Assembly (NCBI GenBank): GCA_964016885.1
Contig: OZ024745.1
Span: forward strand, 7,440,001 to 7,504,000
Length of the DNA stretch: 64,000 bases
Source: Eledone cirrhosa
Taxonomy: Eukaryota
Reading direction: 5' to 3'
The stretch's first letter is position 1; each line of letters opens with the position of its first letter. This document shows, in pieces, positions 4,775 through 62,494 of the stretch. Position numbers and translations under genes: made by a program. The notes under the pieces were generated by a model, which saw nothing but the letters and a program-made list of their open reading frames with translations, had not been told where the DNA came from and did not search any database.

Positions 4775-5900
4775 TATATACAAGAGGTATCGCTATATAC
4801 AAGAGTCATCGCTATATACAAGAGTCATCGCTATATACAAGAGGTATCGCTATATACAAGAGGTATCGCTATATACAAGAGGTATCGCTATATACAAGAG
4901 TCATCGCTATATACAAGAGGTATCGCTATATACAAGAGTCATCGCTATATACAAGAGTCATCGCTATATACAAGAGTCATCGCTATATACAAGAGTCATC
5001 GCTATATACAAGAGTCATCGCTATATACAAGAGGTATCGCTATATACAAGAGTCATCGCTATATACAAGAGTCATCGCTATATACAAGAGGTATCGCTAT
5101 ATACAAGAGGTATCGCTATATACAAGAGGTATCGCTATATACAAGAGGTATCGCTATATACAAGAGTCATCGCTATATACAAGAGTCATCGCTATATACA
5201 AGAGTCATCGCTATATACAAGAGTCATCGCTATATACAAGAGTCATCGCTATATACAAGAGTCATCGCTATATACAAGAGGTATCGCTATATACAAGAGT
5301 CATCGCTATATACAAGAGTCATCGCTATATACAAGAGTCATCGCTATATACAAGAGTCATCGCTATATACAAGAGTCATCGCTATATACAAGAGGTATCG
5401 CTATATACAAGAGTCATCGCTATATACAAGAGGTATCGCTATATACAAGAGTCATCGCTATATACAAGAGTCATCGCTATATACAAGAGTCATCGCTATA
5501 TACAAGAGTCATCGCTATATACAAGAGGTATCGCTATATACAAGAGTCATCGCTATATACAAGAGTCATCGCTATATACAAGAGTCATCGCTATATACAA
5601 GAGTTATCGCTATATACAAGAGGTATCACTATATATCCCGCCGAGGTTGACTTTGCCTTTCATCCTTACGGGGTCGATAAAATAAAGTACCAGTAATGCA
5701 CTGGGTAATTGCTGGCCTTGTGCCTAAAGTAGAAACAACTATATACAAGAGTCATCGCTATATACAAGAGGTATCACTATATACAAGAGGTATCACTATA
5801 TACAAGAGGTATCACTATATACAAGAGGTATCACTATATACAAAAGGTATCGCTATATACAAAAGGTATCGCTATATACAAGAGGTATAGCTATATACAA
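4775..5900. repeat. 19-bp tandem satellite TATATACAAGAG(TC/GT)ATCGC, about 53 units, interrupted by a SINE
   Basis: Directly visible tandem units of two main variants. Confidence 0.97.
5635..5738 (+). mobile_element. 5'-truncated young SINE inserted in the 19-bp satellite
   Basis: Reads identical over 104 bp to 16341-16444; flanked by CTATATA on both sides. Confidence 0.92.
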
Positions 5901-7059: not shown

Positions 7060-7081
7060 ATCTCTCTCTCTCAGAGAGAGG

Positions 7082-7155
<74 letters not shown>
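7060..7155. repeat. (TC)n/(GA)n microsatellite
   Basis: Direct reading. Confidence 0.97.
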
Positions 7156-7157
<2 letters not shown>

Positions 7158-7430
7158 TCAGGAATTTACCAGTTTAAACTAGTTAGACCATTATTCGGCA
7201 GTGCTCGGGATAGTAGAGTATAAATATATTAAAGAGTCGGGGCCTGATGCCGCAGACTCTAGAATTGGTGTCGAAACGGCAAGAGCTCAGCCGTCGAGCC
7301 CCGACTCTATGAACTTCAGCCGCCACTAGCAATCATGTGTGACTTGGCAGTGTGTACTATGCTTCCGCTATGTTTTAGGTGTCCATACAGTCGTGAGCAG
7401 TCACACACACTCCCTGTTCTAGCGGAACTG
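7156..7430 (+). mobile_element. ~275-bp CpG-rich unit carrying a hammerhead-like motif (Penelope pLTR / retrozyme-like)
   Basis: Bounded by GA repeats on both sides. TATAAATA at 7219-7226 lies just upstream of the hammerhead-like fold. Confidence 0.5.
7233..7308 (+). ncRNA. Type I hammerhead ribozyme-like motif with variant core
   Basis: Stem I AGAGTCGGGGC/GCCCCGACTCT; CTGATG; stem II GAC...GTC; GAAA; stem III ACGGC/GCCGT; GTC triplet at 7293-7295. The core reads CTGATG-CCGC-A instead of CTGATGA. Confidence 0.6.
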
Positions 7431-7469
7431 GAGAGAGAGAGAAAGAGAGAGAGGGGACACCACCAACAC

Positions 7470-7595
7470 TGGGCTGGTAACTTTCCTTTTATCGACCTCG
7501 ATAAAAAGCAAAGTATGTAGACCTCGGTAGAGTTTGAACTAAGAATGCAGAGAGCCGGGACAAATACCTAACCACTCTGCCAAATCGACCGCCTT
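7470..7595 (-). mobile_element. Diverged SINE copy
   Basis: ttttatcgacctc...gtttgaactaaga...ctgccaaatcgaccgcc. Confidence 0.7.
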
Positions 7596-7712
7596 ATATA
7601 TAGCAGCGTCAAAATATATATAATATATATATGTGTGTGTATATAATGTTTGCATGTTGGTATGGATTGCACGGTTCATCATGGTCCGAGCCAGTTCTTA
7701 GCCGGAGCTACT

Positions 7713-11140: not shown

Positions 11141-11353
11141 TGGCTGCTATATTGGAAACACTGACTGCAGTACAAAACTTGCGTAGTTTTTAAGAGGGTG
11201 GGTAGAGGGTAAGATAGAGTAGGATAAGTTTTGTATTGTCCGACAAATCTAGCTAGTCTAGCCATCCAACTAAATCTGTTTCTTCAGACACAAGAAAGAA
11301 ATTTCCAATGGATTCTGCAAGAGAGACTAGAAAGAGTAAATGACTTTACTTAC

Positions 11354-12027
11354 TTTTCAGTGGTTGGTGCCGAAAGATTTGGTACTGATGGTAACGTATC
11401 CTTTTCATATATTGTACTAATCCCACTGTCAATATTACTGCTAGCATCTGAATGCTTGCGAACACTGGACTTGCGCACATGACTACGGCCACGTTCTGAA
11501 TCCTTGTGAGCAAGATGATAGTCTGGGTGATTGCGGGATACAGACTCACCCATGTAGCACAACATACTGTGTTTCTGTGCTTCATGTTCTATTTGTTGCC
11601 GACTCTTTCCTTCCCGTGAACTGTGGTGGTGATGGTGGTGGTGGTGATATATTGTAGTCTCCTGATGACCTCCAATTGATTTTTCTTCACCCACACCGCT
11701 GTCATATGACCACATAGAATTTAAGTCCTTGTCTTTCTTCTTATAGAGAGCGTGCACCTTGGAAGCAAGTGCCGGCACTGGAACGGAAGGCATACCAGGC
11801 ACCAACGCTTTGCGGTGAGCACGTTCTGGAGATTTCGGTTTTGGAGAATGACCGCCCGGAGAGCGAAATGGCGTCTGCTGGGCAGAACTCTCCCATATCC
11901 GCGAGCAGTGCTCCTCTAAGATACTATCCGCTAGCTCATCATCAATGGGCACAATTGGAATAAGTGGGGGTAGCTTTGATGAAGCTGTCACATTAGCAAG
12001 GTTTTTACTCTCTTCAATATCATTGCT
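11354..12027 (-). CDS. Axin: Axin exon with beta-catenin-binding region (DSILEEHCSRIW), S/T-P cluster and poly-His tract, 674 bp, phase 0/2
   Basis: Acceptor tttcag|, donor |gtaagt. SILEEHCSRIW resembles Axin SILDEHVQRV. TPFRSPGGHSP and the His run follow in the same order as in Axin1/2. Confidence 0.95.
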
Positions 12028-12626
12028 CTGAAATAGAAATATACAATAATTAGAGAAAATCATATTTTAAATTAAAAGAAAGGGTTATGGATTAGATGGA
12101 TTGCCGATATTTATGTGAATCAAGATAAAACTTATCCAGTAAAATATTGGACATGGAAACCATTGGCAATCATAGAACAAAGTTACAAGTTGGTTTATGT
12201 TGTCACCATGGAGATGAGATAAAGATAAGTTGTAATGTTTACTATAGTTGTAATGTTTACTATTAATATAGTTGAGTAGAAGAAAGGGGGGGGATTAAAG
12301 CAACTCAAGGAAAATTGTAGGTGTGTTATAGAAGAGAAAAACAAAGTTTAGTAAGATCTGTTGAATTGTGTATGATATAGAAACAATGTGGTGATACCTG
12401 GCCTGGGAGCAGACCTATGACAAGGTTTGTAAGTATACACTATGAGAATATCTCGCTGAGCAATGTTCCAGAGGGGAGCCAAACCTGGGAGAAGACTCGT
12501 GACACGGATTGTAAGGGGAGCCAAAAGAAGTAAAAAAAAGGAAAGAATGGCCCCAGTAGACAATCAACGATGTAAAAAGCAGCAAGGATGAAACAGAAAA
12601 AAGGCTAGAGTAATGTAAAAACGTAC

Positions 12627-20885: not shown

Positions 20886-21744
20886 AAATGTGTGTGCAAG
20901 TGAATAGAGAACACATATGGAGAGGGGGGCAGAGCATGAGAAGAGAGTGGAAGAGAGGATGAAAAGAAAAATATCCGATGAGGAAGGGGGAGGTCCCGCT
21001 TGTATGTGTATGTGTGTGTGTTTACGCGTGCACACACACACATACAAAGGTATAGTAAAGCCATGTAGAGCAAGTGTCTGTGTGTTCGACATGAAACTGC
21101 ACACATTGCTGATACTTGTGCATGCTTGAACAACATAGCAATTATATATTCAATACATATATTGAACATGCTCTGCAAAAAAGTTACATTATCACCCACT
21201 CCGATCCACATGGCCTCCACCTCACCAACCCAATATACTTTATCCATCAACTTGCAGCAATTCAAAAACAATCAAATGTTATTGCTATCCCTAAAGAGAG
21301 AATTTTTTAAAATTAAATTTAAAAAAATAAATAAATAAAGAGAGAAAGGTCAACAAGTTGTTTAGCCCGAGATTGGTTCATTTTGAGCAGATCTTTGATT
21401 AAAGGTGTTCCGCCAGTTGTACTTTTTACATCATCTACACCAGACTACATTATCTAATGTGTTCTTCCTTTTTGAAAAGTAGTAGTGTGTGATTTGAGGG
21501 AAATTTAGTTGTTTAGAGCAGGTAAGATAGAGAAGGAAAAGTATAGAAGACAGGTTTATAGTGTTACTATATAACCACTTCTATCTTATAAGTACCAGTA
21601 GTTGTCATCCTTATATAATCAGGTTTTAACCCTAACAGCACTGGACCTGACACTTTTTATAATCTTCCACAACTTTCATTACTTAACAGTTTAAGTTGTC
21701 TATTGTAACATCTGTTTTGCCACACATTATATAGGCTACTGCCA

Positions 21745-22985
21745 GGTAGCCATAACCCCCTATAGTATTGATAGGTCATCAAGTTTACCTAGACATAAGG
21801 TTGTCATAACCCCCTATAGTATTGATAGGTCATCATGTTTACCTAGACATAAGGTTGTCATAACCCCCTATAGTATTGATAAGTCATGTTTACCTAGACA
21901 TAAGGTTGTCATAACCCCCTATAGTATTGATAGGTCATGTTTACCTAGACATAAGGTAGTCATAATCCCCTATAGTACTGATAGGTCATGTTTACCTAGA
22001 CATAAGGTAGTCATAACCCCCTATAGTATTGATAGGTCATGTTTACCTAGACATAAGGTAGTCATAACCCCCTATAGTATTGATAGGTCATCATGTTTAC
22101 CTAGACATAAGGTAGTCATAACCCCCTATAGTATTGATAGGTCATGTTTACCTAGACATAAGGTTGTCATAACCCCCTATAGTATTGATAGGTCATGTTT
22201 ACCTAGACATAAGGTTGTCATAACCCCCTATAGTATTGATAGGTCATGTTTACCTAGACATAAGGTAGACATAACCCCCTATAGTATTGATAGGTCATGT
22301 TTAGCTAGACATAAGGTAGACATAACCCCCTATAGTATTGATAGGTCATCATGTTTACCTAGACATAAGGTAGTCATAACCCCCTATAGTATTGATAGGT
22401 CATGTTTACCTAGACATAAGGTAGACATAACCCCCTATAGTATTGATAAGTCATGTTTACCTAGACATAAGGTTGTCATAACCCCCTATAGTATTGATAG
22501 GTCATGTTTACCTAGACATAAGGTTGTCATAACCCCCTATAGTATTGATAAGTCATGTTTACCTAGACATAAGGTCGACATAACCCCCTATAGTATTGAT
22601 AGGTCATGTTTAGCTAGACATAAGGTAGTCATAACCCCCTATAGTATTGATAGGTCATGTTTAGCTAGACATAAGGTAGTCATAACCCCCTATAGTATTG
22701 ATAGGTCATGTTTACCTAGACATAAGGTTGTCATAACCCCCTATAGTATTGATAGGTCATGTTTACCTAGACATAAGGTTGTCATAACCCCCTATAGTAT
22801 TGATAAGTCATGTTTACCTAGACATAAGGTTGTCATAACCCCCTATAGTATTGATAGGTCATGTTTACCTAGACATAAGGTTGTCATAACCCCCTATAGT
22901 ATTGATAAGTCATGTTTACCTAGACATAGGGTAGACATAACCCCCTATAGTACTGATAGATGATGTTTACATAAGGTAGATATAA
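21745..22985. repeat. 51-bp minisatellite (CATAACCCCCTATAGTATTGATAGGTCATGTTTACCTAGACATAAGGTTGT), about 24 units
   Basis: Direct tandem units; occasional 54-bp unit with an extra CAT. Confidence 0.97.
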
Positions 22986-23247: not shown

Positions 23248-26200
23248 GTCACCTGTGTAGTAATGACTATTGCTAGTATGACACCTGTGTAGTAATGACT
23301 ATTGCTAGTATGACACCTGTGTAGTAATGACTATTGCTAGTATGACACCCGTGTAGTAATGACTATTGCTAGTATGACACCTGTGTAGTAATGACTATTG
23401 ATAGTATGTCACCTGTTTAGTAATGACTATTGCTAGTATGACACCTGTGTAGTAATGACCATTGCTAGTATGTCACCTGTGTAGTAATGACCATTGCTAG
23501 TATGTCACCTGTGTAGTAATGACCATTGCTAGTATGACACCTGTGTAGTAATGACTATTGCTAGTATGTCACCTGTGTAGTAATGACTATTGCTAGTATG
23601 ACACCTGTGTAGTAATGACTATTGCTAGTATGACACCTGTGTAGTAATGACCATTGCTAGTATGACACCTGTGTAGTAATGACTATTGCTAGTATGTCAC
23701 CTGTCTAGTAATGACTATTGCTAGTATGACACCTGTGTAGTAATGACTATTGCTAGTATGTCACCTGTGTAGTAATGACTATTGCTAGTATGTCACCTGT
23801 GTAGTAATGACTATTGCTAGTATGACACCTGTGTAGTAATGACTATTGCTAGTATGACACCTGTGTAGTAATGACCATTGCTAGTATGTCACCTGTCTAG
23901 TAATGACTATTGCTAGTATGACACCTGTGTAGTAATGACTATTGCTAGTATGTCACCTGTGTAGTAATGACTATTGCTAGTATGTCACCTGTGTAGTAAT
24001 GACTATTGCTAGTATGTCACCTGTGTAGTAATGACTATTGCTAGTATGTCACCTGTGTAGTAATGACTATTGCTAGTATGACACCTGTGTAGTAATGACT
24101 ATTGCTAGTATGACACCTGTGTAGTAATGACTATTGCTAGTATGTCACCTGTGTAGTAATGACTATTGCTAGTATGTCACCTGTCTAGTAATGACTATTG
24201 CTAGTATGTCACCTGTGTAGTAATGACTATTGCTAGTATGTCACCTGTGTAGTAATGACTATTGCTAGTATGTCACCTGTGTAGTAATGACTATTGCTAG
24301 TATGTCACCTGTCTAGTAATGACTATTGCTAGTATGACACCTGTGTAGTAATGACTATTGCTAGTATGTCACCTGTGTAGTAATGACTATTGCTAGTATG
24401 TCACCTGTGTAGTAATGACTATTGCTAGTATGTCACCTATGTAGTAATGACTATTGCTAGTATGACACCTGTGTAGTAATGACTATTGCTAGTATGACAC
24501 CTGTGTAGTAAGGACTATTGCTAGTATGACACCTGTGTAGTAATGACTATTGCTAGTATGACACCTGTGTAGTAATGACTATTGCTAGTATGACACCTGT
24601 GTAGTAATGACTATTGCTAGTATGTCACCTGTGTAGTAATGACTATTGCTAGTATGACACCTGTGTAATAATGACTATTGCTAGTATGTCACCTGTGTAG
24701 TAATGACTATTGCTAGTATGACACTTGTGTAATAATGACTATTGCTAGTATGACACCTGTGTAGTAATGACTATTGCTAGTATGTCACCTGTGTAGTAAT
24801 GACTATTGCTAGTATGTCACCTGTGTAGTAATGACTATTGCTAGTATGACACCTGTGTAATAATGACTATTGCTAGTATGTCACCTGTGTAGTAATGACT
24901 TGCTAGTATGACACCTGTGTAGTAATGACTATTGCTAGTATGACACCTGTGTAGTAATGACTTGCTAGTATGACACCTGTGTAGTAATGACTATTGCTAG
25001 TATGTCACCTGTGTAGTAATGACTTGCTAGTATGACACCTGTGTAGTAATGACTATTGCTAGTATGACACCTGTGTAGTAATGACTATTGCTAGTATGTC
25101 ACCTGTGTAGTAATGACTTGCTAGTATGACACCTGTGTAGTAATGACTATTGCTAGTATGACACCTGTGTAATAATGACTATTGCTAGTATGTCACCTGT
25201 GTAGTAATGACCATTGCTAGTATGACACCTGTGTAATAATGACTATTGCTAGTATGTCACCTGTGTAGTAATGACCATTGCTAGTATGACACCTGTGTAG
25301 TAATGACTATTGCTAGTATGACACCTGTGTAGTAATGACTATTGCTAGTATGTCACCTATGTAGTAATGACTATTGCTAGTATGTCACCTGTGTAGTAAT
25401 GACCATTGCTAGTATGACACCTGTGTAATAATGACTATTGCTAGTATGTCACCTGTGTAGTAATGACCATTGCTAGTATGACACCTGTGTAGTAATGACT
25501 ATTGCTAGTATGACACCTGTGTAGTAATGACTATTGCTAGTATGACACCTGTGTAGTAATGACTATTGCTAGTATGTCACCTGTGTAGTAATGACTATTG
25601 CTAGTATGACACCTGTGTAGTAATGACTATTGCTAGTATGACACCTGTGTAGTAATGACTATTGCTAGTATGACACCTGTGTAGTAATGACTATTGCTAG
25701 TATGACACCTGTGTAGTAATGACCATTGCTAGTATGACACCTGTGTAGTAATGACTTGCTAGTATGACACCTGTGTAGTAATGACTATTGCTAGTATGTC
25801 ACCTGTGTAGTAATGACTATTGCTAGTATGTCACCTATGTAGTAATGACTATTGCTAGTATGACACCTGTGTAGTAATGACCATTGCTAGTATGACACCT
25901 GTGTAGTAATGACTATTGCTAGTATGACACCTGTGTAGTAATGACTATTGCTAGTATGTCACCTATGTAGTAATGACTATTGCTAGTATGACACCTGTGT
26001 AGTAATGACTATTGCTAGTATGTCACCTGTGTAGTAATGACCATTGCTAGTATGACACCTGTGTAGTAATGACTATTGCTAGTATGACACCTGTGTAGTA
26101 ATGACTATTGCTAGTATGTCACCTATGTAGTAATGACTATTGCTAGTATGTCACCTATGTAGTAATGACTATTGCTAGTATGACACCTGTGTAGTAATGA

Positions 26201-28265
26201 CTATTGCTAGTATGTCACCTGTGTAGTAATGACTATTGCTAGTATGTCACCTATGTAGTAATGACTATTGCTAGTATGTCACCTATGTAGTAATGACTAT
26301 TGCTAGTATGACACCTGTGTAGTAATGACCATTGCTAGTATGTCACCTGTGTAGTAATGACTATTGCTAGTATGACACCTGTGTAGTAATGACTATTGCT
26401 AGTATGTCACCTATGTAGTAATGACTATTGCTAGTATGTCACCTGTGTAATAATGACTATTGCTAGTATGTCACCTGTGTAGTAATGACTATTGCTAGTA
26501 TGACACCTGTGTAGTAATGACTATTGCTAGTATGACACCTGTGTAGTAATGACTATTGCTAGTATGTCACCTGTCTAGTAATGACTATTGCTAGTATGAC
26601 ACCTGTGTAGTAATGACTATTGCTAGTATGACACCTGTGTAGTAATGACTATTGCTAGTATGACACCTGTGTAGTAATGACTATTGCTAGTATGTCACCT
26701 GTCTAGTAATGACTATTGCTAGTATGTCACCTGTCTAGTAATGACTATTGCTAGTATGTCACCTGTGTAGTAATGACTATTGCTAGTATGTCACCTGTGT
26801 AGTAATGACTATTGCTAGTATGTCACCTGTGTAGTAATGACTATTGCTAGTTTGACACCTGTGTAGTAATGACCATTGCTAGTATGACACCTGTGTAGTA
26901 ATGACTATTGCTAGTATGTCACCTGTGTAGTAATGACTATTGCTAGTATGACACCTGTGTAGTAATGACTATTGCTAGTATGTCACCTGTGTAGTAATGA
27001 CCATTGCTAGTATGACACCTGTGTAATAATGACTATTGCTAGTATGACACCTGTGTAGTAATGATTATTGCTAGTATGACACCTGTGTAGTAATGACTAT
27101 TGCTAGTATGTCACCTGTCTAGTAATGACTATTGCTAGTATGTCACCTATGTAGTAATGACTATTGCTAGTATGACACCTGTGTAGTAATGACTATTGCT
27201 AGTATGTCACCTGTGTAGTAATGACCATTGCTAGTATGACACCTGTGTAATAATGACTATTGCTAGTATGTCACCTGTGTAGTAATGACTTGCTAGTATG
27301 ACACCTGTGTAATAATGACTATTGCTAGTATGTCACCTGTGTAGTAATAACTACTGCTAGTATGACACCTGTGTAGTAATGACTATTGCTAGTATGTCAC
27401 CTGTGTAGTAATGACCATTGCTAGTATGACACCTGTGTAGTAATGACTATTGCTAGTATGACACCTGTGTAGTAATGACTATTGCTAGTATGTCACCTAT
27501 GTAGTAATGACTATTGCTAGTATGTCACCTATGTAGTAATGACTATTGCTAGTATGTCACCTGTGTAGTAATAACTACTGCTAGTATGACACCTGTGTAG
27601 TAATGACTATTGCTAGTATGTCACCTATGTAGTAATGACTATTGCTAGTATGTCACCTGTGTAGTAATGACCATTGCTAGTATGACACCTGTGTAGTAAT
27701 GACTATTGCTAGTATGTCACCTGTGTAGTAATGACTATTGCTAGTATGTCACCTGTGTAGTAATGACTATTGCTAGTATGACACCTGTGTAGTAATGACT
27801 ATTGCTAGTATGTCACCTATGTAGTAATGACTATTGCTAGTATGACACCTGTGTAATAATGACTATTGCTAGTATGTCACCTGTGTAGTAATGACTATTG
27901 CTAGTATGACACCTGTGTAGTAATGACTATTGCTAGTATGTCACCTGTGTAGTAATGACTATTGCTAGTATGACACATGTGTAGTAATGACTATTGCTAG
28001 TATTTCACCTGTGTAGTAATGACTATTGCTAGTATGTCACCTGTGTAGTAATGACTATTGCTAGTATGACACCTGTGTAGTAATGACTATTGCTAGTATG
28101 TCACCTGTGTAGTAATGACTATTGCTAGTATGTCACCTGTGTAGTAATGACTATTGCTAGTATGACACCTGTGTAGTAATGACTATTGCTAGTATTTCAC
28201 CTGTGTAGTAATGACTATTGCTAGTATTTCACCTGTGTAATAATGACTATTGCTAGTATGTCACC
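23248..28265. repeat. 32-bp satellite (CACCTGTGTAGTAATGACTATTGCTAGTATG[A/T]), about 157 units, 5 kb
   Basis: Direct tandem units, highly homogeneous. Confidence 0.99.
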
Positions 28266-39587: not shown

Positions 39588-41330
39588 CCCTTTCGTTACC
39601 AAACCGCCCAAAGCCGCCCGAAAAAATTTTGTTTCATGTGACCAAGCCGCCCGTACTCACACATTCATATTTAAATGAGAATATCAGAGCAAATCTCGTT
39701 AGTATAATCACGTGTTTTCACGAATGTACTATGTAAACAATTGAGCTACAGTTTTGGACAAATATCGACGTGTTATTTTAATTCTGTGAATTTTGGTAGA
39801 TTTTTTTCCAAATTTGTTCCTGTTGCGTTTTGAAAATTTGTAATTCTGACAAAAAATGGATATCAATTTCATTCAGTCAAGCAGCGAGTCAGAATTCGAA
39901 TGATTTTCTACTGAAGACCTTGAAAAATCTAATTCTATAACTGAAAAAAAAAAGCACGTGGTATTTGATAATGAATCCGATGTTTCATTTTCCGAAAGTG
40001 AAAACAGTGAATCCGAGAGCTCCGATGACAGCGATAAAGAAAATGAATTGGCACCTGAATGGAGTAAAAATTTAAAAACTGTTTCTTTCAGTGATTTTTA
40101 TGAAGAAACTGAACCAAGTCACAATCTATCCCAGGAGAGCAAAGCTTTAGACTATTTCCTTTTACTTTTTCCTATGAGCTTGTTTGAAATTATTACGGCG
40201 GAAACAAACCGTTATGCTGAAAGTAAACAAAGCGAAAAAAAGGATAGTTTGTGGTTTCCCACAAGCTTAAATGAAATTAGGGCTTATTTTGCCATAAATA
40301 TTATGGGCATTAGAAAGCTACCCAGAATTACAAATTACTGGAGTAGTGATGAACCCTTTGGAGACAAATATGTCTCAAGTATAATGACGAGGACACGGTT
40401 TTTAAAATTGACGCAGTATTTACATGTAAGAGACACAAGCAGTACACCAGTACGTGGAGAACCAAACTATGATCCCTTATTTAAAATAAGACCCCTCATT
40501 GATTGTTTTCAAAACACGTATAAAACAATTTACAAACCAGGGAGATATTTATCTATCGATGAGGGTATGGTGGGCTATAAAGGCTGAGTGCGTTTTCGAC
40601 AATATATGCCAGGAAAGCCCACAAAATGGGGTTTCAAAGTTTGGAAGATTTGCGAATCGAATACTGGGTACTGCTCTGGATTTGAATTTTATACTGGCAA
40701 AAGAGACAATTATGTAAGTCAGCATGGCCTAGGGTATGGTGTGGTCTGGAATTTATCACTTCCATACCATAACCAGGGCCGTATATTATTTTTTTACCGG
40801 TTTTTCAGTTCGGTCAAACTTGCGGAGAATTTAGATACTGTGGCAACACATACATGTGCTACAGTGATCGCTAATAGAAAAGGACTGCCATTGGATATAA
40901 CGAAAGCAAAATAAAAAAAAAGGTGAAATAATTCAACAGCAGAAAAGAAATTTGCTAGCAACCGCATACAGAGATAAGAGGCAGATCAAATTTCTGTCTA
41001 CCTGTGCACGGCCACATGTGGATGAAAATTGCACTCCATTTGTGAATCTCGATTATAACAGGTACATGGGTGGTGTAGATCGGATGAATCAGATGATGTC
41101 TTATTACCCAGTTGGCAGATCGGGGAATAAATGGTGGCGATACCTTGTTTGGTATATAGTAAATATAAGTATTACTAATGCTATATACCAAATCAGGACC
41201 GGCTCAAAAGCGATGCGACCATCTGCAGTTCCGAGCAGATATAGCAACACAATTAAGAGCTGGTTATTCCTAAAAAAAAAAGCCTGCCAGAGAGATATCC
41301 CTCTGAATTCAGCCGATCTCCATAAATTAG

Positions 41331-41365
<35 letters not shown>

Positions 41366-42144
41366 GAGGGTCGCAAAAAGCAGTGTCGTGAATGCCTTCA
41401 TCAAAAAAGGAAAGCTCCTAGTGGAAGGTCTGTTGAAACAACTTTCCAATGTGCATTCTGCAACGTTGCATTATGTAGAGCAGGGTGCTTTACAAGTTTT
41501 CATGATAGGAATATTGTTTGATTTGTATATATGTGTGATTTTATTTTATTAATATTTTCAAATTTACTTCGTTTTTATTTTTCCTGTAAGGTGAGTGACG
41601 AGTTTTGATTAATTTCTTTTGTAAATCATTATTGTATATTTCTTCGTATCTATGTATGTGGGAGAGCTTATTTAATCTAGTTGATGGTGTATGTATTTTG
41701 TTTTCTAGTTTTCTTCACAGACAAATTCCAGTCTTTCATTTTATTTATACCTTTATGGTACACCTGTCTTTTGTGTGTTTAAATTCACCTGATAAATCCA
41801 GTAATGTGCACAACTCTTCTATAGTAAAATTTTGTTGTATACCCAATTGAATATTAGCTAATAACCCATTTTCTATATCGATGTTTGAACAAAATTTAAA
41901 TAATTTCATATTTTGTTGAATTTACCTGTATTTACCTGTAATTAGAGTCACTTTGAGACAAAAATTATGGAATAGAATTGATTGAGAACCTTTCGTTAAA
42001 TTTTCTTCAAAAAAAATCACATTAATATGTTGATAAATAAAAAGTTAGAGTTGTTTAATGAAACCAGACTAAATTTATGAATGTTAGAAATTAATTGAAA
42101 CACATAAGGGGTGTATTTTGGTTAGAAATATGGTAACGAAAGGG
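39588..42144 (+). mobile_element. Full-length piggyBac DNA transposon (2557 bp)
   Basis: TTAA at 39584-39587 and 42145-42148. Perfect 14-bp TIRs CCCTTTCGTTACCA/TGGTAACGAAAGGG. Internal transposase remnants. Confidence 0.96.
39856..41521 (+). pseudogene. piggyBac (PGBD4-like) transposase pseudogene
   Basis: Acidic N-terminus, DPLFKIRPL, SIDEGM, YMPGKPTKWG, YNRYMGGVD and a C-terminal Cys-rich domain. Stops at 39901 and 40585, frameshift near 40912; the second catalytic Asp position reads Y (FFYRFF). Confidence 0.93.
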
Positions 42145-47904: not shown

Positions 47905-50900
47905 GCTGTAAAATGGAGGGGTAGAGAGGGCCCATGAGTCCAATAAGACAGCCTCTCTAGTGCTGGTGGCACGAATAAAAGCACCCAGTCCATGCTGTAA
48001 AGTGGCACTGGTGTTAGGAAGGGCATCCAACCAGTGTATCAATGCCAAAGCAATTATGAGCACAGCTACAAATATATAGGAACAACAAAAATATGAAGAC
48101 GTCGCATCTCAGAGTTGCAACACTTAATGTTGGCACTCTCACAGGTAGATCTGGTGAAATAGTGGAGATGCTAGAGAGAAGGCATGTGGATGTGTGCTGC
48201 GTGCAAGAGGCGAGATGGAGAGGTGCCTCTGCGAGACTAGTCGCAGGCAAACATCTTAGCTATAAGCTTTTCTGGGTAGGTAAGGATGATGGGTTAGGGG
48301 GAGTAGGCATTTTCCTGGCTGAGAGATGGATCAATAAGACAATAGAGGTAGTTCGAGTTAATAATCGAATAATTAAGCTTAGATTAGTTGTAGGCAGGAA
48401 ACTTTTACAAGCAACTTTTACAAACAACTGCAATGACAGAGGACGGAGACATCGTTATGCTAGCAGGGGACTTCAATGGTCATGTTGGACAGCTCCAGGA
48501 TGGTTACACTGGGGTACATGGTGGGCACAGTTACGGCTCAAGAAATGAAGAAGGAGTGAGACTTCTTGAATTTTGTGATGCAAGTACACTGACTATTTGC
48601 AACACTAACTTCCAGAAACCTGCCAACCACCTAATAATCTACAAATCAGGCGAGCACATAAGCCAGATTGATTTCTTACTAGTTAGGCAGCAGGACAGGC
48701 AGATGGTGTCAAATACCAAGGCATACCCTGGGGAAGAATGCATCCCACAGCATAGGTTAGTCGATAGTGATATCTCAGTAATCAAGAGACAGAATGAGAC
48801 ATACAGGAAGGTGTGGAGAAGAAAGGTCTGGAAGCTAAAAGACCTTTCACTAAAATACAAATTTAGGAAAGCCCTTCAAGATGTGTATGATGAAAAAGAA
48901 GACGATTTAGAGATATATGACATAGATAATAACTGGAATTTTTTACGTCACAACTTACTGCAGGCTACTGATGAAACTTGTGGCTGGAGCAGAGCTCTAA
49001 CCAGACAGAGAGTGACCTGGTGGTGGAACAGCACAGTAGATAAGGCCATTAGAGACAAAAGACTAGCATGGAAGGCTTGGAAAAAGGGTGGGAGTAGAGA
49101 AGGATATACAGCCGCTAAGAGAGAAGCTAGACGTCAGGTGTACTTAGCACGCAGGGAGGCTGAGAGTAGGAGGTTTGCCAATGTTCTGCGACGGGAAGAT
49201 CAGAGGTGTGCGATGTTCCACATTGCAAGGCAGTGTGTCAGTGCAAATCAGGATGTTGTTGGAGATAAATGTGTCCGGAATGATGCCGGTGTACTTAGTG
49301 TCACGAATGACCAAAAAAAAGGAGGCCTGGAAATGTCATTATGAGAGACTGATGAATGTGGAGAACGAATGGGAGAGAGAGAAATTACCCTCAGTAGATC
49401 CGACAGAGGGACCAGCTATTGAGATTGATGAATATAGGGTACAAGAAGCGATTAAGGAAATGAAAAATGGTAAGGCTGCTGGACCGTTGGGGATAGTTGC
49501 TGAGATGCTGAAGTCATCAGGGGGCGTAGGCACTAAACTGGTTGCACGCATCATCAATCAGGCTATATATGGTGGTGTCATACCCAAAGACTGGTGCAGC
49601 AGTATTCTCATAAATTGCTACAAAGGTAAAGGGGATGCTCTGGAGAGGAGCAATTATAGGGGTATAAAACTGATGGATCAGGTTATGAAAGTGGCAGAAA
49701 GGATATTAGCACAACTAATTAGAGAAAGGGTCAAACTAGATGAGATGCAGCTTAGTTTTGTGCCTGGGAAAAGTACAACAGATGCCCTCTTCTTGGTGAG
49801 ACAATTACAAGAGAGGTTCTATACTCAGCCTTTGTTGACCTAGAGAAGGCCTTTGATAGGATACCCCGATATGTCATCTGGTGGTCCCTAAGGAAACTAG
49901 GTGGTGAGGAATGGCTTATGAGGATAGTGCAAACTTTGTACAGACGTGATTTCAGTAAAGTCAGGGTAGGAATGGAGTTTAGTGAGGAATTCCAGATACA
50001 AGTAGGAGTATATCAAGGTTCGGTCCTCAGCCCGCTCTTGTTCATTATAGTCGTCCAAGCCATAACATAGAAGTTTAAGACTGGCTGTCCATGGGAACTT
50101 CTCTATGCTGATGATCTGGTTCTTATAGCAGAATCAGTAGAGGAGCTAGAGAATAAATTCTGGCTATGGAAACAGCAGTTGGCAGCAAGAGGACTGAGAG
50201 TGAACATAGCTAAGACAAAAGTGTTGAGTAGAAAAGTGGACAAAACTCTGATTCCATCGGGGAAATGGCCATGTTCGATATGCAGAAAAGGAACTGGCAT
50301 AAATTCTATAAAATGCACACAATGCAGATCTTGGTACACAAGAGATGTAGTGGGATAGCAGGCAAACTAACAGGTAGGGAGAAATATGTATGCAGTAGAT
50401 GTACAGGGAAATTAGACAGTAGAAGTTGCATTGATAGACACATTTTTCAAATGCAGGCGGGTGCTATAGAAGTGGTGGATAGCTTCCGGTATGTAGGAGA
50501 TCAGACTAGCATGGGAAGGGGGGGGGGGGGGTTCCGAGACCATAGTATCTAGAATAAGGACGGGTTGGAAGAAGTTTAGGGAGCTGCTTCCTCTGCTGAC
50601 GAAAAGCCGGTTATATAAGCCTTGCACACGGAAGGCCGGTTATATGATGCCTATGTGAGGAGCGCGATGCTGCATGGTAGTGAGACATGGGCAGCAACTG
50701 CAGAGGATATGCGACGGCTGGAGAGAAATGAGGTAAGCATGCTCCGTTGGATGTGCAATGTCAATGTGCGTGAACGACCCAGCATGAATGTGTTGAGAGA
50801 GAAACTGTGTTTAAGAGGGATAAGTTGTAGTGTGCGGGAGAGAAGACTGCGGTGGTATGGACATGTGATGTGCATGGAGCATGACCGATGGGTGAAGAAG

Positions 50901-52811: not shown

Positions 52812-55320
52812 TCATCATCATCATCGTTTTACGTCCGTTCTTCCATGCTACCATGGGTTAGACAGGTTGTCCTGTTGTGGGCAGTGTCTGGTCGGCTGAC
52901 CATATCTTGCTCATACAGGAACTGATTTTGGCTTGATTTCTACAGCTGGATGCCCTTCCTAACACCAACCTCATTTACAGTGAGTGCTGGGTGCTTTTTC
53001 CATGGCGCCTACACGTCCACTTTACAGTGTGGGCTGGGTGCATTTTTGCCGTGGCACCTCCACGACCACCTTGCAGTGGGAGGGTGTGGGGGCATATTGT
53101 CTATATGCTTCAGCTTGTACCCATGGGAGGTCGGGTACTCTATTACTGCGCGACGCCAGAGGTCACGGTCAGCTTTTATCACCTCATCCCAAGTCTTCTT
53201 GGGTCTCCCCACTCCGCGGTTTGCATTGACTTCTAGTGCTCTGCACCTTTTTATGCAGCTGTCATCTTTCATACGCATCACATGTCCATACCAACACAAC
53301 CTCCTCTCCTGCACACAGCATGATTCCTCTTATGCTCAGTCTCTCTCAATTCATTTATGCTTTGTCGTTCGCGTATATTACTATTACACATCCATCGGAG
53401 CATGCAGGCTTCGTTTCTTTCTAATCTACGTAAGTCTTCCACCTTCAGCGCCCAGGTTTCACTACCATGTAACATTGTTGTTCGGATACACGCATCATAC
53501 AGCCTGCCTTTCATTTTGAGGGAGAAGCCTTTTGCAGCTAGCAGTGGCAGTAGTTCCATGAACTTCTTCCATCCCGTTCCTACCCTAGTTATTGTACTTT
53601 CTGAAAACCCACCTCCGCTGCTAATTCGGTCACCTAGGTAGCAGAAGCTGTCTACTGTTTCTACAGAGCCCTCCCAGAGATTGGTGGTACTTGTTTCCTG
53701 TGGCTGTTTGCTGCTTGCTGTCCCACCACAGCTGCTACATGTGAAGCCTACATTCTTAATTAAGCTTCCTGAGATCCCGCTACATCTCTTGTGTACCCAT
53801 TGTTTGCATTTGGGGCAGAGAATGGAGTTCCTACCTGCACCTTTCCTACATACTGAGCAAGGCCATTTCCCTGAGGGGATCTGGGTTCTGTTTTGTCGTC
53901 TACTTACAAGGACCTTAGTCTTTGTCATGTTGACTTTGAGACCCTTTCTTTCTAGTCCCTCCTTCCAAGTTTGAAATTTCTTCTCTAGTTCTACCATAGA
54001 TTCAGCTATAAGTGCGAGGTCATCAGCATACAGGAGTTCCCATGGGCATCCGGTCTTAAACTCCTCCGTTATTGCCTGCAGGACTATGATGAACAGGAGA
54101 GGGCTAAGAACAGAGCCCTGATGGACACCAACCTGTACGCTAAATTCCTCGCTATACTCATTGCTAATCCTAACTTTGCTGACTGCTCCCTTATACATGG
54201 CTTGTACAGCTTTCGCAAGCCATTCATCTACTCCTAGTTTTCTAAGAGCCCACCAGATTACAGCACATGGAACTCTGTCAAAGGCTTTCTCGAGATCAAC
54301 GAATGCCAGGTAGAGTGGCTTACTTTTAGCTATGTACTTTTCCTGTAACTGCCTCACAAGGAAGAGGGCATCAGTGGTGCCTCTTCCTGGTACAAACCCA
54401 AATTGCATCATCTATTTTCACCCGGTCCCAAATCAACTGTGCTATAACTCTTTGTTACTTTCATGACCTGGTCCATCAGCTTTATACCTCTATAGTTTCC
54501 TCTATCTAGTGCATCACCTTTACCTTTGTAGCATTTGACAATGATGCTACTGCACTAATCTTTTGGTATGACACCTAGTATTATCTGGTTAACAATACGT
54601 GTGGTTATAGTGTGATCTACAGACCCAGATGCCTTCACCTAGCTTCCCTCTTGGTCTCTATGTAATGTACCCTGCTCCCACCGTTCTTCCATTCTTTCCA
54701 TGCCTGTCTCATCTACCTTATTGTTCCACCACCAAGTCACTCTCCTTCTGCTTGTGGTCTTACTCCAGCCACAGACCTCATCCGTCGCCTCTAGTAAGTT
54801 ATTTTTTAGGAACTCCCAGTGCTCTTCTACATTGAATGTCTCTATCTGTTCTTCTTTATTGTCGTAGGCGTTGAGTAAAATATCTTTAAATCTGTTACTG
54901 GCTGAGGGGTCTTTCAGCTTCCAGATCTTTCTTCTCCAGGTTGGCCTCTGTTTCCAGGTTCGTCTAGTTCTGACCGTAAGGTCGCTGACAACTGTCCATC
55001 TGTCACGTTCTCTGATGAGGACAAAATCTATCCGACTAGAATGCTCCCCTGATCTATAGGCGATCAGGTGGTTGTCGGGTTTTTTGAAGTTTGTGTTACT
55101 TATCGACATGTCATTGGCATCGCAGAATTCTAGAAGTCTGAATCCTTCCTCATTTCTTGTGCCAGCCCCGTGGCCTGCATGGACTCTATTGAAGCCGTCA
55201 CAGTGTTTACCTACGTGTCCGTTAAAATCTGTGATGATTAGGAAATCATTGTCGTTTGTTAGAGCAGTAGTGTGCATTAGGGACTCGTAAAATCTATCCT
55301 TAAGTTCGTCTGTCAACCCC
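52812..55320 (-). mobile_element. 5'-truncated RTE LINE, copy 1 (internal deletions)
   Basis: ORF 53278-54411 has QFGF, AFVDLEKAFD, GVHQGSVLSP and LYADD; EN remnant DFNGHVG; (GAT)n tail. Confidence 0.95.
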
Positions 55321-56462
55321 GATATATACAACATATTACAAATTGTTTTTGATTGAGGAACTTTGTGTGAAACAACAAACATTTCAAGTTGTAATTACTT
55401 TTAAAAAGAAGTAGGTGGAAAGTTGCAAGAGGGTGAGAGCAGGAGAATCTGAGGGGAAGAACTCACATTAAACAAGTGGGCCCTTGATTAACATTGAGCT
55501 GGGCCCACCTAGATGTCCTCCTCTTGCTTTTCTCCTCCAGCAGATCTTTCCTTTTCCTTATTTTTAGTAACCAAAAGAACTTCTTTCAATAACAAATTAA
55601 GTAATAAATGAGATTTTGGTTTGAGATTTTAATGAAAAATAGGGACTTTTTAATAAGGGTTAGGGTAACAATATAACCAGGAAGGGTTTGTATTGAAAAA
55701 AGTTAAAATCCTGAAATTGTACACAGAGCTTGTGTTTCACTACCAGTAAATATTATCTGCAACAGGTTGTGTACATAAAATCACATCAAGAAGTGCATGC
55801 AGCTGCTGAATATGCTAGAAATAGCAACTCATTTCCATCAAATTATGCCATCATCACTTTTATATCTGTTTACCATGTTAACATTGACAAGTTGTTACAT
55901 TTTTGGTATGGTTTCTACAGCTGGATGCCCTTCTTAATACTAATAAGTTTACAGTATGTACTGGGTGCATTTTATCATGACACCAGCACTATCAGTTACA
56001 GCATAGACTGAGTATGTTTTATATTGTTGCACCACCTTTATACTTTACAGTGTGAATTGGGTGGTCTCCTCAAAAAGACACATTGAACATAATAGTCCAT
56101 GGTATGCCAAATGACACGATGTTCACGGCTATGATGCTTTTGAATATATCTCTGTTTGATTCAAGCTGACTTGGGGTTAAACAATAACCAGAACATGTAT
56201 GTGAGAAAGTGTTAACATTGGCACAAGACCAGCAATTTTGAAGGGATGGTTATATCGACTCCAGTACTTGCCAGATATTTGATCTAACTGATCTCAGAAC
56301 ATAAAGAGCTGGAATAATTACTGCTAATCATTGGTCCAATCCTTTAAAAGAAACTCTACCAATCCATTGCCCTTTTCCTTTCCACCATAATAATAGTAAT
56401 CCTAAGTAATTCAATCCAATCCAGGGCCTTCTTACTCCTGTTGGAGGAACCACTTTCTCTTT

Positions 56463-57445
56463 GTTCTGGTCACGTCCAGAGTGTAGCCACACTAACCCTA
56501 TTTGGCCAACTGCCGGGTGATAAGACTATTTAACCCATCGTTAGTTCTGGTCATGTCCAGAGTGTAGCCATACTAACCCTATTTGGCCAACTGCCGGGTG
56601 ATAAGACTATTTAACCCATCGTTAGTTCTGGTCACGTCCAGAGTGTAGCCATACTAACCCTATTTGGCCAACTGCCGGGTGATAAGACTATTTAACCCAT
56701 CGTTAGTTCTGGTCACGTCCAGAGTGTAGCCATACTAACCCTATTTGGCCAACTGCCGGGTGATAAGACTATTTAACCCATCGTTAGTTCTGGTCATGTC
56801 CAGAGTGTAGCCATACTAACCCTATTTGGCCAACTGCCGGGTGATAAGACTATTTAACCCATCGTTAGTTCTGGTCATGTCCAGAGTGTAGCCATACTAA
56901 CCCTATTTGGCCAACTGCCGGGTGATAAGACTATTTAACCCATTGTTAGTTCTGGTCATGTCCAGAGTGTAGCCATACTAACCCTATTTGGCCAACTGCC
57001 GGGTGATAAGACTATTTAACCCATCGTTAGTTCTGGTCATGTCCAGAGTGTAGCCATACTAACCCTATTTGGCCAACTGCCGGGTGATAAGACTATTTAA
57101 CCCATCGTTAGTTCTGGTCATGTCCAGAGTGTAGCCATACTAACCCTATTTGGCCAACTGCCGGGTGATAAGACTATTTAACCCATCGTTAGTTCTGGTC
57201 ATGTCCAGAGTGTAGCCATACTAACCCTATTTGGCCAACTGCCGGGTGATAAGACTATTTAACCCATCGTTAGTTCTGGTCATGTCCAGAGTGTAGCCAT
57301 ACTAACCCTATTTGGCCAACTGCCGGGTGATAAGACTATTTAACCCATCGTTAGTTCTGGTCACGTCCAGAGTGTAGCCATACTAACCCTATTTGGCCAA
57401 CTGCCGGGTGATAAGACTATTTAACCCATTTTTAACCCATCGTTG
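56463..57445. repeat. 81-bp tandem repeat, about 12 near-identical units
   Basis: GTTCTGGTCA(C/T)GTCCAGAGTGTAGCCATACTAACCCTATTTGGCCAACTGCCGGGTGATAAGACTATTTAACCCATCGTTA repeated. Confidence 0.98.
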
Positions 57446-59494: not shown

Positions 59495-62494
59495 TCATCA
59501 TCATCATCACCGTTTTACGTCCGTTCTTCCACGCTAGCATGGTTAGACGGGTTGTCCTGTTGTGGGCAGTGTCTGGTCGGCTGACCATGCCTTGCTCATA
59601 CAGGAACTGATCTGGCTTGATTTCTACAGCTGGATGCCCTTCCTAACACCAACCTCATTTACAGTGAGTGCTGGGTGCTTTTTCGTGGCGCCTACACGTC
59701 CACTTTACAGTGTGGGCTGGGTGCTTTTTTGGCACCTCCACGACCACCTTGCGGTGGGGGGAGTGGGGGCATATTGTTTATATGCTTCAGCATGTACCCA
59801 TGGGAGGTCGGGTACCCTGTATTACTGCGTGACGCCAGAAGTCACGGTCGTGTGTCATTGTCTTTGAGCGGTGTAGTTAGGTAAGGTCGGCTTTTATCAC
59901 CTCATCCCAAGTCATCTTGGGTCTCCCCACTCCGCGGTTTCCATCAACTTCTAGTGCTCTGCACCTTTTTATGCAGCTGTCATCCTTCATACGCATCACA
60001 TGTCCATACCAGCGTAACCGCCTCTCCTGCACGCAGCATTTGATTCCTCTTATGCTCAGTCTCTCTCTCAATTCCTTTATGCTTTGTCGTTCACGTATAT
60101 TACTGTTACACATCCATCGGAGCATGCAGGCTTCGTTTCTCTCTAATCTACGTAAGTCTTCCACCTTCAGCGCCCAGGTCTCACTACCATGCAACATCGC
60201 TGTTCGGATACACGCATCATACAGTCTGCCTTTCATTCTGAGGGAGAAGCCTTTTGCAGCTAGCAGTGGTAGTAGTTCCCTAAACTTCTTCCATCCCGTT
60301 CTTACCCTAGTTATTGTACTTTCTGAGCACCCACCTCCGCTGCTAATTCGGTCACCTAGGTAGCAGAAGCTGTCTACTGTTTCTATAGGGCCCTCCCAGA
60401 GATTGGTGGTACTTGTTTCCTGTGGCTGTTTGCTTGCTGTTTCAGCACAGCTGCTGCATGTGAATCCTACATTCTTAATTAAGCTTCCTGAGATCCCGCT
60501 ACATCTCTTGTGTACCCATTGTTTGCATTTGGGGCAGAGAATGGAGTTCCTACCTACACCTTTCCTACATACTGAGCAAGGCCATTTCCCTGAGGGGATC
60601 TGGGTTCTGTTTTCTCGTCTACTTACAAGGACCTTAGTCTTTGTCATGTTGACTTTGAGGCCCTTTCTCTCTAGTCCCTGCTTCCAGGTTTGGAATTTAT
60701 TCTCTAGTTCTACCATAGATTCAGCTATGAGTGCGAGGTCATCAGCATACAGGAGTTCCCATGGGCATCCGGTCTTAAACTCCTCCGTTATTGCCTGCAG
60801 GACTATGATGAACAGGAGAGGGCTAAGAACAGAGCCCTGGTGGACCCCAACCTGTACGCTAAATTCCTCGCTATACTCATTGCTAATCCTAACTTTGCTG
60901 ACTGCTCCTCTATACATGGCTTGTACCGCTTTCACAAGCCATTCATCTACTCCTAGTTTTCTAAGAGCCCACCAGATTACCGCATGTGGAACTCTGTCAA
61001 AGGCTTTCTCAAGGTCGACAAATGCCAAGTAGAGTGGCTTACTTTTAGCTAGGTACTTTTCCTGTAATTGCCTCACAAGGAAGAGGGCATCAGTGGTGCC
61101 TCTCCCTAGTACAAACCCAAATTGCATCTCGTCTATATTCACCCGGTCCCTAATCAGCTGTGCTATAACTCTTTCTGTTACTTTCATGACCTGGTCCATC
61201 AACTTTATACCTCTATAGTTTCCTCTATCTAGTGCATCGCCTTTACCTTTGTAGCAGTTGACAATGATGCTACTGCACCAATCTTTTGGTATGGCCCCTT
61301 CTAGTATTACCTGGTTAACGATACGTGTGGTTATAGTGTGACCTACAGACCCAGATGCCTTCAGCATCTCGGCAGCTATACCCGATGGACCGGTTGCCTT
61401 CCCCATCTTCATATCTCTGATTGCCTTACTTACTACGCTGCCGCTGACTTGTACTGCTGGTCCCTCTATAGGGTCTACATGGGGTAGGGTCTCTTCTTCC
61501 CATGCATTCTCCTCATTTTGTAATCTATCATAATGACTCTTCCATGTATCTTTCTTCTCAGCACTTGTGAGGGCAAGCTCACCTTTATCATTCCGGATAC
61601 ACTTCTCTCCAATGACATCACAACTATCTCTGACACACTGCCTCGCAATCTTGAATACCTCCCGTTTCTGGTCCTCACGTTGTAAAACATGCTTGAATTT
61701 TCTATCCTCTGCTTCCCTCCTAGTTAAGTATACTTGTCGCCTAGCTTCCCTCTTGGTCTCTATGTAATGTACTCTGCTCCCCCCGTTCTTCCATTCTTTC
61801 CATGCCTGTCTCTTGGCCTTGACTGCTTCATCTACCTTATTGTTCCACCACCAAGTCACTCTCCTCCTGCTTGAGGTCTTACTCCAGCCACAAACCTCAT
61901 CCGTCGCCTCTAGTAAGTTATTTTTTAGGAACTCCCAGTTCTCTTCTACGTTAAATGTCTCTATCTGTTTTTCTTTACTGTTGTAAGCGTTGAGTAAAAT
62001 ATCTTTAAATCTGTTACTGGTTGAGGGGACTTTCAGCTTCCAGATCTTTCTTCTCCAGGTTGGCCTGTTTCCGGGGTCGTCTAGTTCTGACCGTGAGGTC
62101 GCTGACAACTAAGCTATGTTGGGATGTACATTCCTCACTAGGGAAGGCTTTTGTGTTTACGACCGTCCATCTGTCACGTCCTCTGATGAGGATAAAATCT
62201 AACTGACTAGAGTGCTCCCCTCTGATCTATAGGTGATCAGGTGGTTGTCGGGTTTTTTAAAAGTTTGTGTTACATATCGACATGTCATTGGCGTCGCAGA
62301 ATTCTAGAAGTCTGAATCCTTCCTCATTCCTTGTGCCAACTCCATGGCCTCCATGTACTCTATTGAAGCCGTCGCAGTGTTTACCTACGTGTCCGTTAAA
62401 ATCTGTGATGATTAGGAAGTCATTGTCGTTTGTTAGAGCAGTAGTGTGCATTAGGGACTCGTAAAATCTATCCTTAAGTTCGTCTGTCAACCCC
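59495..62494 (-). mobile_element. 5'-truncated RTE LINE, copy 2, with a 743-aa open RT reading frame (59877-62108)
   Basis: RT motifs intact (NYRGIKL, QFGF, DLEKAFD, QGSVLSP, YADD) plus a C4HC3 finger. EN region frameshifted and truncated; (GAT)n tail. Confidence 0.96.

Follow-up and report, generated by a model that had tools for sequence, protein, structure and literature searches.

A head-to-head Penelope-like stump between Axin exons with half a hammerhead and a probable CpG-decayed core look-alike

An old Penelope-like element (PLE), by its motifs likely of the Hydra clade, has left hundreds of short head-to-head insertions, and the element at positions 7156–7308 of the window (the whole 64,000-nucleotide stretch of DNA analysed here) is one of them. 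What it carries is a real, Penelope-derived half hammerhead, neither a variant ribozyme nor a retrozyme. We hold it very probable that this stump keeps only the rear half of a canonical hammerhead, that its apparent front half is an inverted arm, likely altered by CpG decay, and that the whole is predicted not to cleave. A preliminary description made from the sequence alone had proposed a variant-core hammerhead marking a retrozyme family; its attribution to a Penelope pseudo-LTR hammerhead was right, and the GAAA, stem III and GTC half that it drew is genuine. The features are listed below.

7073–7155, no strand assigned: (GA)n microsatellite adjoining the tail end of the insertion; likely target
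7156–7247, minus strand: inverted arm, the PLE pseudo-LTR 3′ end, family positions 113–216 (two-arm alignment)
7156–7224, minus strand: optional element tail of about 80 nt, on one arm only, here with 7-, 2- and 1-nt deletions
7244–7249, plus strand: CTGATG catalytic-core look-alike, aligning with inverted-arm CCGACG, two CpG-type transitions away (direct comparison)
7248–7257, no strand assigned: inter-arm junction, 10 nt left over by the best two-arm fit, containing CCGC-A-GAC
7258–7308, plus strand: direct arm, family positions 76–127, the real hammerhead 3′ half, stopping at the tail-less end
7312–7600, plus strand: separate older dispersed repeat outside the PLE piece, 62–80% identity among copies
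11350–12066, minus strand: Axin exon frame with the beta-catenin-binding motif (PF08833, E 1.4e-15)

The motifs that had been reported at this locus are present, and the two-arm alignment reassigns several of them. The direct arm supplies the 3′ strand of stem II (7267–7272), GAAA (7273–7276), stem III (7276–7280/7290–7294, ACGGC/GCCGT around the palindromic GAGCTC loop), C17 at 7295 as the end of GTC, and the 3′ strand of stem I (7296–7299) with one change. From GAAA through stem III to the NUH cleavage triplet (7273–7295) this arm agrees with the family consensus and forms a hammerhead 3′ half. The 11-bp inverted repeat (7233–7243/7298–7308) and the adjacent CTGATG (7244–7249) had been taken as the front half of the ribozyme; both trace to the inverted arm. 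The 11-bp "stem I" is a pairing between the two arms, and it is perfect since the arms are complementary to one another; its 5′ strand, the TATA-like word and CTGA all come from the inverted arm at 7156–7247, and TATAAATA, found at 7219–7226, is one letter off the inverted-arm consensus TGTAAATA. The inverted arm possibly continues in decayed form to 7249–7250.

The youth ascribed to the unit held for one arm only. The right arm differs from the family consensus by 2 mismatches in 44 positions and keeps 5 of 5 CpGs, against 10 mismatches and 12 gap columns in the left arm. Among 62 right-arm matches, a query-biased set that includes the window's own copy and duplicates, 3 have at most two mismatches and 4 keep all five CpGs. 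The right arm ranks with the best-kept copies, which under plain decay would be luck only and is a point against the stump reading. Nor does the unit extend over 275 bp with GA on both sides, as had been described. The left (GA)n tract at 7073–7155 adjoins the tail end, which here meets (GA)n and not (TA)n, and the element ends at 7308; from 7312 a separate repeat begins, whose purine-rich middle is the right-hand GA tract (7431–7452). At the other loci of this repeat a PLE piece lies within 1.5 kb in only 1 of 19, and not adjacent. The repeat, perhaps SINE-like, has a sharp 5′ start and shares its 3′ part with a very abundant short repeat (39 matches scored). Three contig sets from one sample cover both flanks of the element with no listed letter differences, but the unit itself is spanned by none of them. 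The sequencing runs listed include no RNA run.

A search of the 3.0-Gb genome with 7156–7430 returned 733 candidates, 40 of which were scored. Nearly all of these 40 cover only the first 153 bases of the query, at 70–82% identity over long matches, and the best other copy of the unit is 78% identical. No tandem array of the short unit was found at the site or among the genome loci retrieved with this query, and the arms lie head to head, so the proposed retrozyme family was not borne out. The copies are lopsided palindromes, many of them shorter than 200 bp. Since a pooled consensus mixes the arms, direct and inverted arms were given separate consensus sets. In two-arm fits at 32 loci, 25 have an inverted arm that extends to the tail end; the direct arm ends about 80 nt earlier, at family positions 125–140, also in 25, one of these being a spurious low-score match; and 4 loci have no real second arm. 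Arm junctions scatter over positions 65–141, usually with gaps of 0–19 nt, and the hammerhead core falls within the direct arm in only 4 of the 32. Inverted arms seem to start preferentially near the cleavage site (6 of 32 at positions 113–118, the cut lying before 115, against about 2.5 expected if even over 65–141); this excess was discounted because the query itself starts at the same place. Tail-bearing ends, read by eye, adjoin GA repeats in 8 of 25 cases and TA repeats in 9, and the earlier suggestion that copies favour microsatellites is borne out. Several more tail-bearing ends adjoin (GATA)n (flanks of L001–L032); the tail-less ends nearly all adjoin (TA)n and none (GA)n. This difference between end classes could reflect 2–3 nt of primer-template homology.

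Longer copies reveal what the hammerhead of this family looks like. One copy with a complete CTGATGA core (L011) served as the query for full motifs, and after duplicates were dropped and one locus was kept for each of two segmental arrays, 20 of 30 loci provided independent full copies. All three stems are present around a canonical core (C3 in 17, U4 in 19, G5 in 19, A6 in 20, G8 in 18 and A9 in 20 of the 20), and none has an insert between G8 and A9. The motif is a type I hammerhead with a 4-bp stem I, CTGATGA, a 6-bp stem II capped by about 40 nt of loop, GAAA, a 5-bp stem III with a palindromic loop, and GTC. The preliminary description had stated that a canonical CTGATGA family consensus would make this locus only a dead copy, and that is the consensus found; a family with a variant core is not what these copies represent, with the proviso that they were retrieved with a canonical-core query and that a rare variant subfamily could escape, given that 40 of 733 candidates were scored. 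Compensatory changes accompany the stems: across 22 copies from both lineages 85.2% of cells are paired; at pair 3-8, 9 copies have UA and 8 have CG, and at the outer stem I pair 11 have CG and 6 have GC. As the tree shows two lineages, these changes would amount to about one event for each pair.

An exact pattern for the intact old-family hammerhead gave 0 matches, consistent with the age of the family. The old family also yielded no intact ORF of its own, which counts against the stump reading. A literature search turned up no paper on its hammerhead; supplements S1 and S2 of PMC8557442 may list the family. Two further arrangements were seen. One palindromic copy (L047/L078, G000:C3:180380417-180384524) has an inverted arm of about 900 bp and two hammerheads on opposite strands, separated by 1.5 kb. 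Segmental arrays with a period of 20–25 kb hold the same old PLE copy in each unit, at G000:C5:30.05-30.46 Mb (L038, L041, L045, L046, L049, L053, L057, L062–L077) and on C440.

We next consider where the odd core came from. Just inside stem I, the consensus of the inverted arm has CCGACG, which is complementary to the cleavage-site region of the family itself, and CTGATG of the window copy is two CpG-type transitions from it. Among 27 anchorable arms of 29 examined, CTGA occupies the core site in 9 and CTGATG in 3; in the other two CTGATG arms (L012 and L030) the word runs on into an inverted stem III, which shows that the look-alike originates in the inverted arm. We infer that the look-alike core arose by later CpG decay, and the final TG of CTGATG may instead be junction filler, given the 10 leftover junction bases. 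The CCGC insertion, which had been suggested as a possible family variant, is part of an arm junction: the CCGC-A-GAC core occurs in 0 of 26 other anchored arms and in 0 of 5 copies sharing the GGTGTC variant of the window copy (one of which, L017, is also among the anchored arms). A GGTGTC subfamily with its own core was considered and rejected, as the junctions of the 5 copies are unrelated.

The same PLE stump could also have kept CTGATG as a true remnant of the sense core, still predicted to be inactive, if the inverted arm had joined the sense strand at a GGCC/GCCC microhomology and deletions had then trimmed the core and stem II. All 7 of 7 positions of CCTGATG agree with the sense consensus, and a GATG repeat there could yield CTGATGC by slip deletion. 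This route requires at least two further deletions before the right arm is reached, whereas the inverted-arm reading costs two common transitions, and in L012 and L030 the word clearly continues as inverted arm; we consider a sense remnant very unlikely. The inverted-arm origin of CTGATG is the reading followed below.

Folding calculations bear on whether the window copy could act as a ribozyme. Its hairpin is far beyond chance (z −4.7, 0 of 200 shuffles), and the minus strand folds almost equally well (z −3.6). The predicted fold is one long hairpin rather than a hammerhead, in which CUGAUG pairs with the 3′ strand of stem III; pairing probabilities are about 0.02 for stem III and about 0.13 for the 3-bp stem II. 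The letters also depart from the hammerhead core, C3-U4-G5-A6-N7-G8-A9 leading into stem II: CCGC separates CTGATG from the next A, and in place of a three-way junction with stem I directly after C17, 2 nt are unpaired past C17. Folding alone does not dispose of the copy, because the consensus of the old family likewise prefers a fold other than the hammerhead (0.11 for stems I and III). The misplaced A9 and the absence of a second copy weigh more against a ribozyme here than folding does. An Rfam hammerhead search gave no match at the window copy, which is uninformative because the full canonical copies L011 and L044 were missed too, as was the young copy L176.

An active variant-core hammerhead, whether fixed in a short retrozyme family or rebuilt accidentally in one copy, would account for several of these observations. 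Every core letter is present apart from a correctly placed A9, the structure as drawn is legal (−28.8 kcal/mol, against −36.3 kcal/mol for the best fold), preservation is good in the 3′ half, CpGs included, and natural core variants of low activity are described in part of PMC3088659. Among the copies examined, no second one has the same core and no tandem array of the unit was found; 4 nt lie between G8 and A9, 2 unpaired nt follow the cut, stem II has 3 bp, and stem III pairs at about 0.02. Core inserts reported in the same part of PMC3088659 sit elsewhere, none between G8 and A9, and they lowered activity. We therefore give an active variant core only a slight chance. It is equally improbable that fold-back and CpG decay accidentally built a new front half (the 11-bp stem I and CUGAUG) and with it a ribozyme weakly active in place. 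RNA of the stump is predicted not to self-cleave.

The parent of the stump is an element encoding reverse transcriptase (RT) and endonuclease (EN). Long old-family copies extend more than 1.5 kb upstream through AC-rich sequence, and RT or EN remnants lie upstream of the old-family hammerhead in three separate regions (L075, L086 and L062/L045). RT is followed by C-terminal GIY-YIG remnants, and the pseudo-LTR with hammerhead, the inverted truncated copy and the optional tail complete the features of an EN+ PLE. With the upstream RT remnant of L075 as query, a young tandem family was retrieved (L176 at G000:C1:437199000-437208900; also L165, L166, L170 and L185–L214), with a period of 3531 bp and a 784-codon stop-to-stop frame (P0001) to which the old-family RT/GIY-YIG remnants are 50–57% identical. 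The pseudo-LTR ends of the old and young families are 74% identical over 112 nt; all 40 of 40 scored young copies are identical or near-identical over 211 nt. The spacing between their two end classes is exactly 80 nt (in 14 of 20 distinct ends), and ends with visible flank adjoin (TA)n. The young hammerhead core is U3-U4-G5-A6-N7-A8-A9, with any of the four letters at N7 among relatives, and its best fold is the hammerhead, as a monomer, with a 5-bp stem III (0.98 for stem I, about 0.76 for stem III and about 0.63 for stem II); it is no more stable than shuffles (z −0.15). A mismatched C3-A8 core occurs in 3 of 12 young-lineage hammerheads (L125:2706-2803, L157:2112-2209 and L159:389-486). 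These copies were considered as intermediates between C3-G8 and U3-A8, and no such role is claimed for them: the tree puts them within the A8 lineage, at two positions and with weak support.

P0001 has the motifs DKT and RWR, a CxCx5C linker, and CxxC and CxH around conserved E and N, with no CCHH; from its motifs as compared with section 11 of PMC8557442, the young PLE likely belongs to the Hydra clade. Only CxxC/CxH of these motifs is visible in the old-family remnants. A Pfam search of P0001 gave no match, and a protein homologue search gave 637. In a GIY-YIG family search, 30 loci of 150 matches proved to be other PLE types and none was tied to the old-family end; one short match (L117) is a sister-family stump. 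Other GIY-YIG elements are very many (10,595 candidates, with CxxC before the YIG motif; L091–L120), and in a relaxed scan of L091–L120 the 1.5 kb next to the endonuclease ends showed no clear hammerhead.

MITE or Helentron-type DNA elements, whose inverted repeats are asymmetric, can also take the form of short palindromic units extended at one end; on that reading the hammerhead-like words would be due to chance, and many copies here are indeed under 200 bp. Against this, the arms come in any length from below 20 to about 900 bp (L047), single-armed copies exist, a tandem RT-EN element carries a homologous end, and the stems and pair 3-8 covary between lineages. The long copies leading into RT and GIY-YIG remnants already contradict such an origin, which we regard as hardly credible, and we retain the PLE assignment.

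Taken together, a model for the insertion emerges. Both arms derive from one element end, the tail is on one of them, the 5′ core strand is lost, and the parent is an RT-EN element. For an anole PLE in vitro, part of PMC11167929 describes two internal RT start sites that bound a tail and the nicking and extension of both target strands; inverted truncated copies and microsatellite targets are described for PLEs in parts of PMC8557442 and PMC3846280. By analogy with the anole PLE, the element protein would nick the microsatellite, and reverse transcription would be primed twice, from two RNA sites 80 nt apart. Both cDNA copies would stop early and be joined at their 5′ ends, head to head, with loss of the CUGAUGA strand. 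Later CpG decay would then turn CCGACG of the inverted arm into the CUGAUG look-alike.

Axin had been named at this locus, and it is confirmed: the beta-catenin-binding exon (11350–12066) and the DIX exons, about 112 kb downstream (G000:C5:7334190-7335549, minus), are on the same strand, and the site between these exons is likely intronic. Long homogeneous minisatellites occur within or beside Axin at 23250–28265 (32 bp ×157), 21744–22970 (51 bp ×24), 4775–5900 (19 bp ×58) and 56463–57429 (81 bp ×12). The window also holds LINE-type frames at 59877–62108 (minus), 53278–55394 (minus) and 48394–49843 (plus), in which a PHD finger comes after RT (open frame of 743 codons), with AP-endonuclease remnants nearby, and a piggyBac-like transposase (DDE_Tnp_1_7 and a zinc finger) in two frames at 39904–41521 (plus).

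The locus itself is minor, one of hundreds of dead stumps. Its wider import is a warning for ribozyme scans. CCGAC, the complement of the hammerhead cleavage-site region, is one CpG transition from CUGA, so that fold-back Penelope insertions keep yielding false variant-core hammerheads with a perfect stem I; here the false core appears as CTGA in 9 of 27 arms. The young, intact, likely Hydra-clade PLE, with its identical tandem copies, its 80-nt tail and a U3-A8 hammerhead for which monomer folding is predicted, is the better experimental object and a good substrate for work on PLE hammerhead function and the origin of the tail.

The insertion resembles inverted 5′-truncated insertions of EN+ PLEs. 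As in the figure 2 legend of PMC8557442 and in part of PMC3846280, the arms lie head to head and just one of them bears a tail; heavy 5′ truncation and microsatellite targets recur as in the relevant parts of both sources, and the partial tandems described there are matched by the young sister family. The tail is about 80 nt here against the 30–40 nt given in those parts, and both arms of the window copy are extremely short. With the Hydra clade of section 11 of PMC8557442, P0001 shares DKT, CxCx5C, CxxC/CxH, the lack of CCHH, the hammerhead and (TA)n ends; it differs in RWR instead of RWK and in a 3.5-kb unit against "generally <3 kb". Insertion at (TA)n, as in the Hydra clade, is seen at ends of the family, and the tail end of the old family is often at (GA)n. 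Type I PLE pseudo-LTR hammerheads (Cervera and de la Pena 2014, PMC4209133, in part) have in common with the old family a 4-bp stem I, a long stem II, a palindromic loop III, G10.1-C11.1 and opposite-strand hammerhead pairs (here L078). The U3-A8 swap of the young sister recurs in the Schistosoma Cercyon elements covered there, and a swap of this kind also appears in part of PMC3088659. The family motif, with its 5-bp stem III and loop II of about 40 nt, differs from the minimal helix III of that part of PMC4209133, and the window copy is without the 5′ half. Animal non-LTR retrozymes, as outlined in part of bioRxiv 10.64898/2026.07.22.740005, are likewise PLE-derived, non-coding and of type I hammerhead ancestry. 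In that account they are head-to-tail tandems with a complete hammerhead in each unit, whereas the window holds no tandem unit of this kind and has a single head-to-head stump with half a hammerhead.
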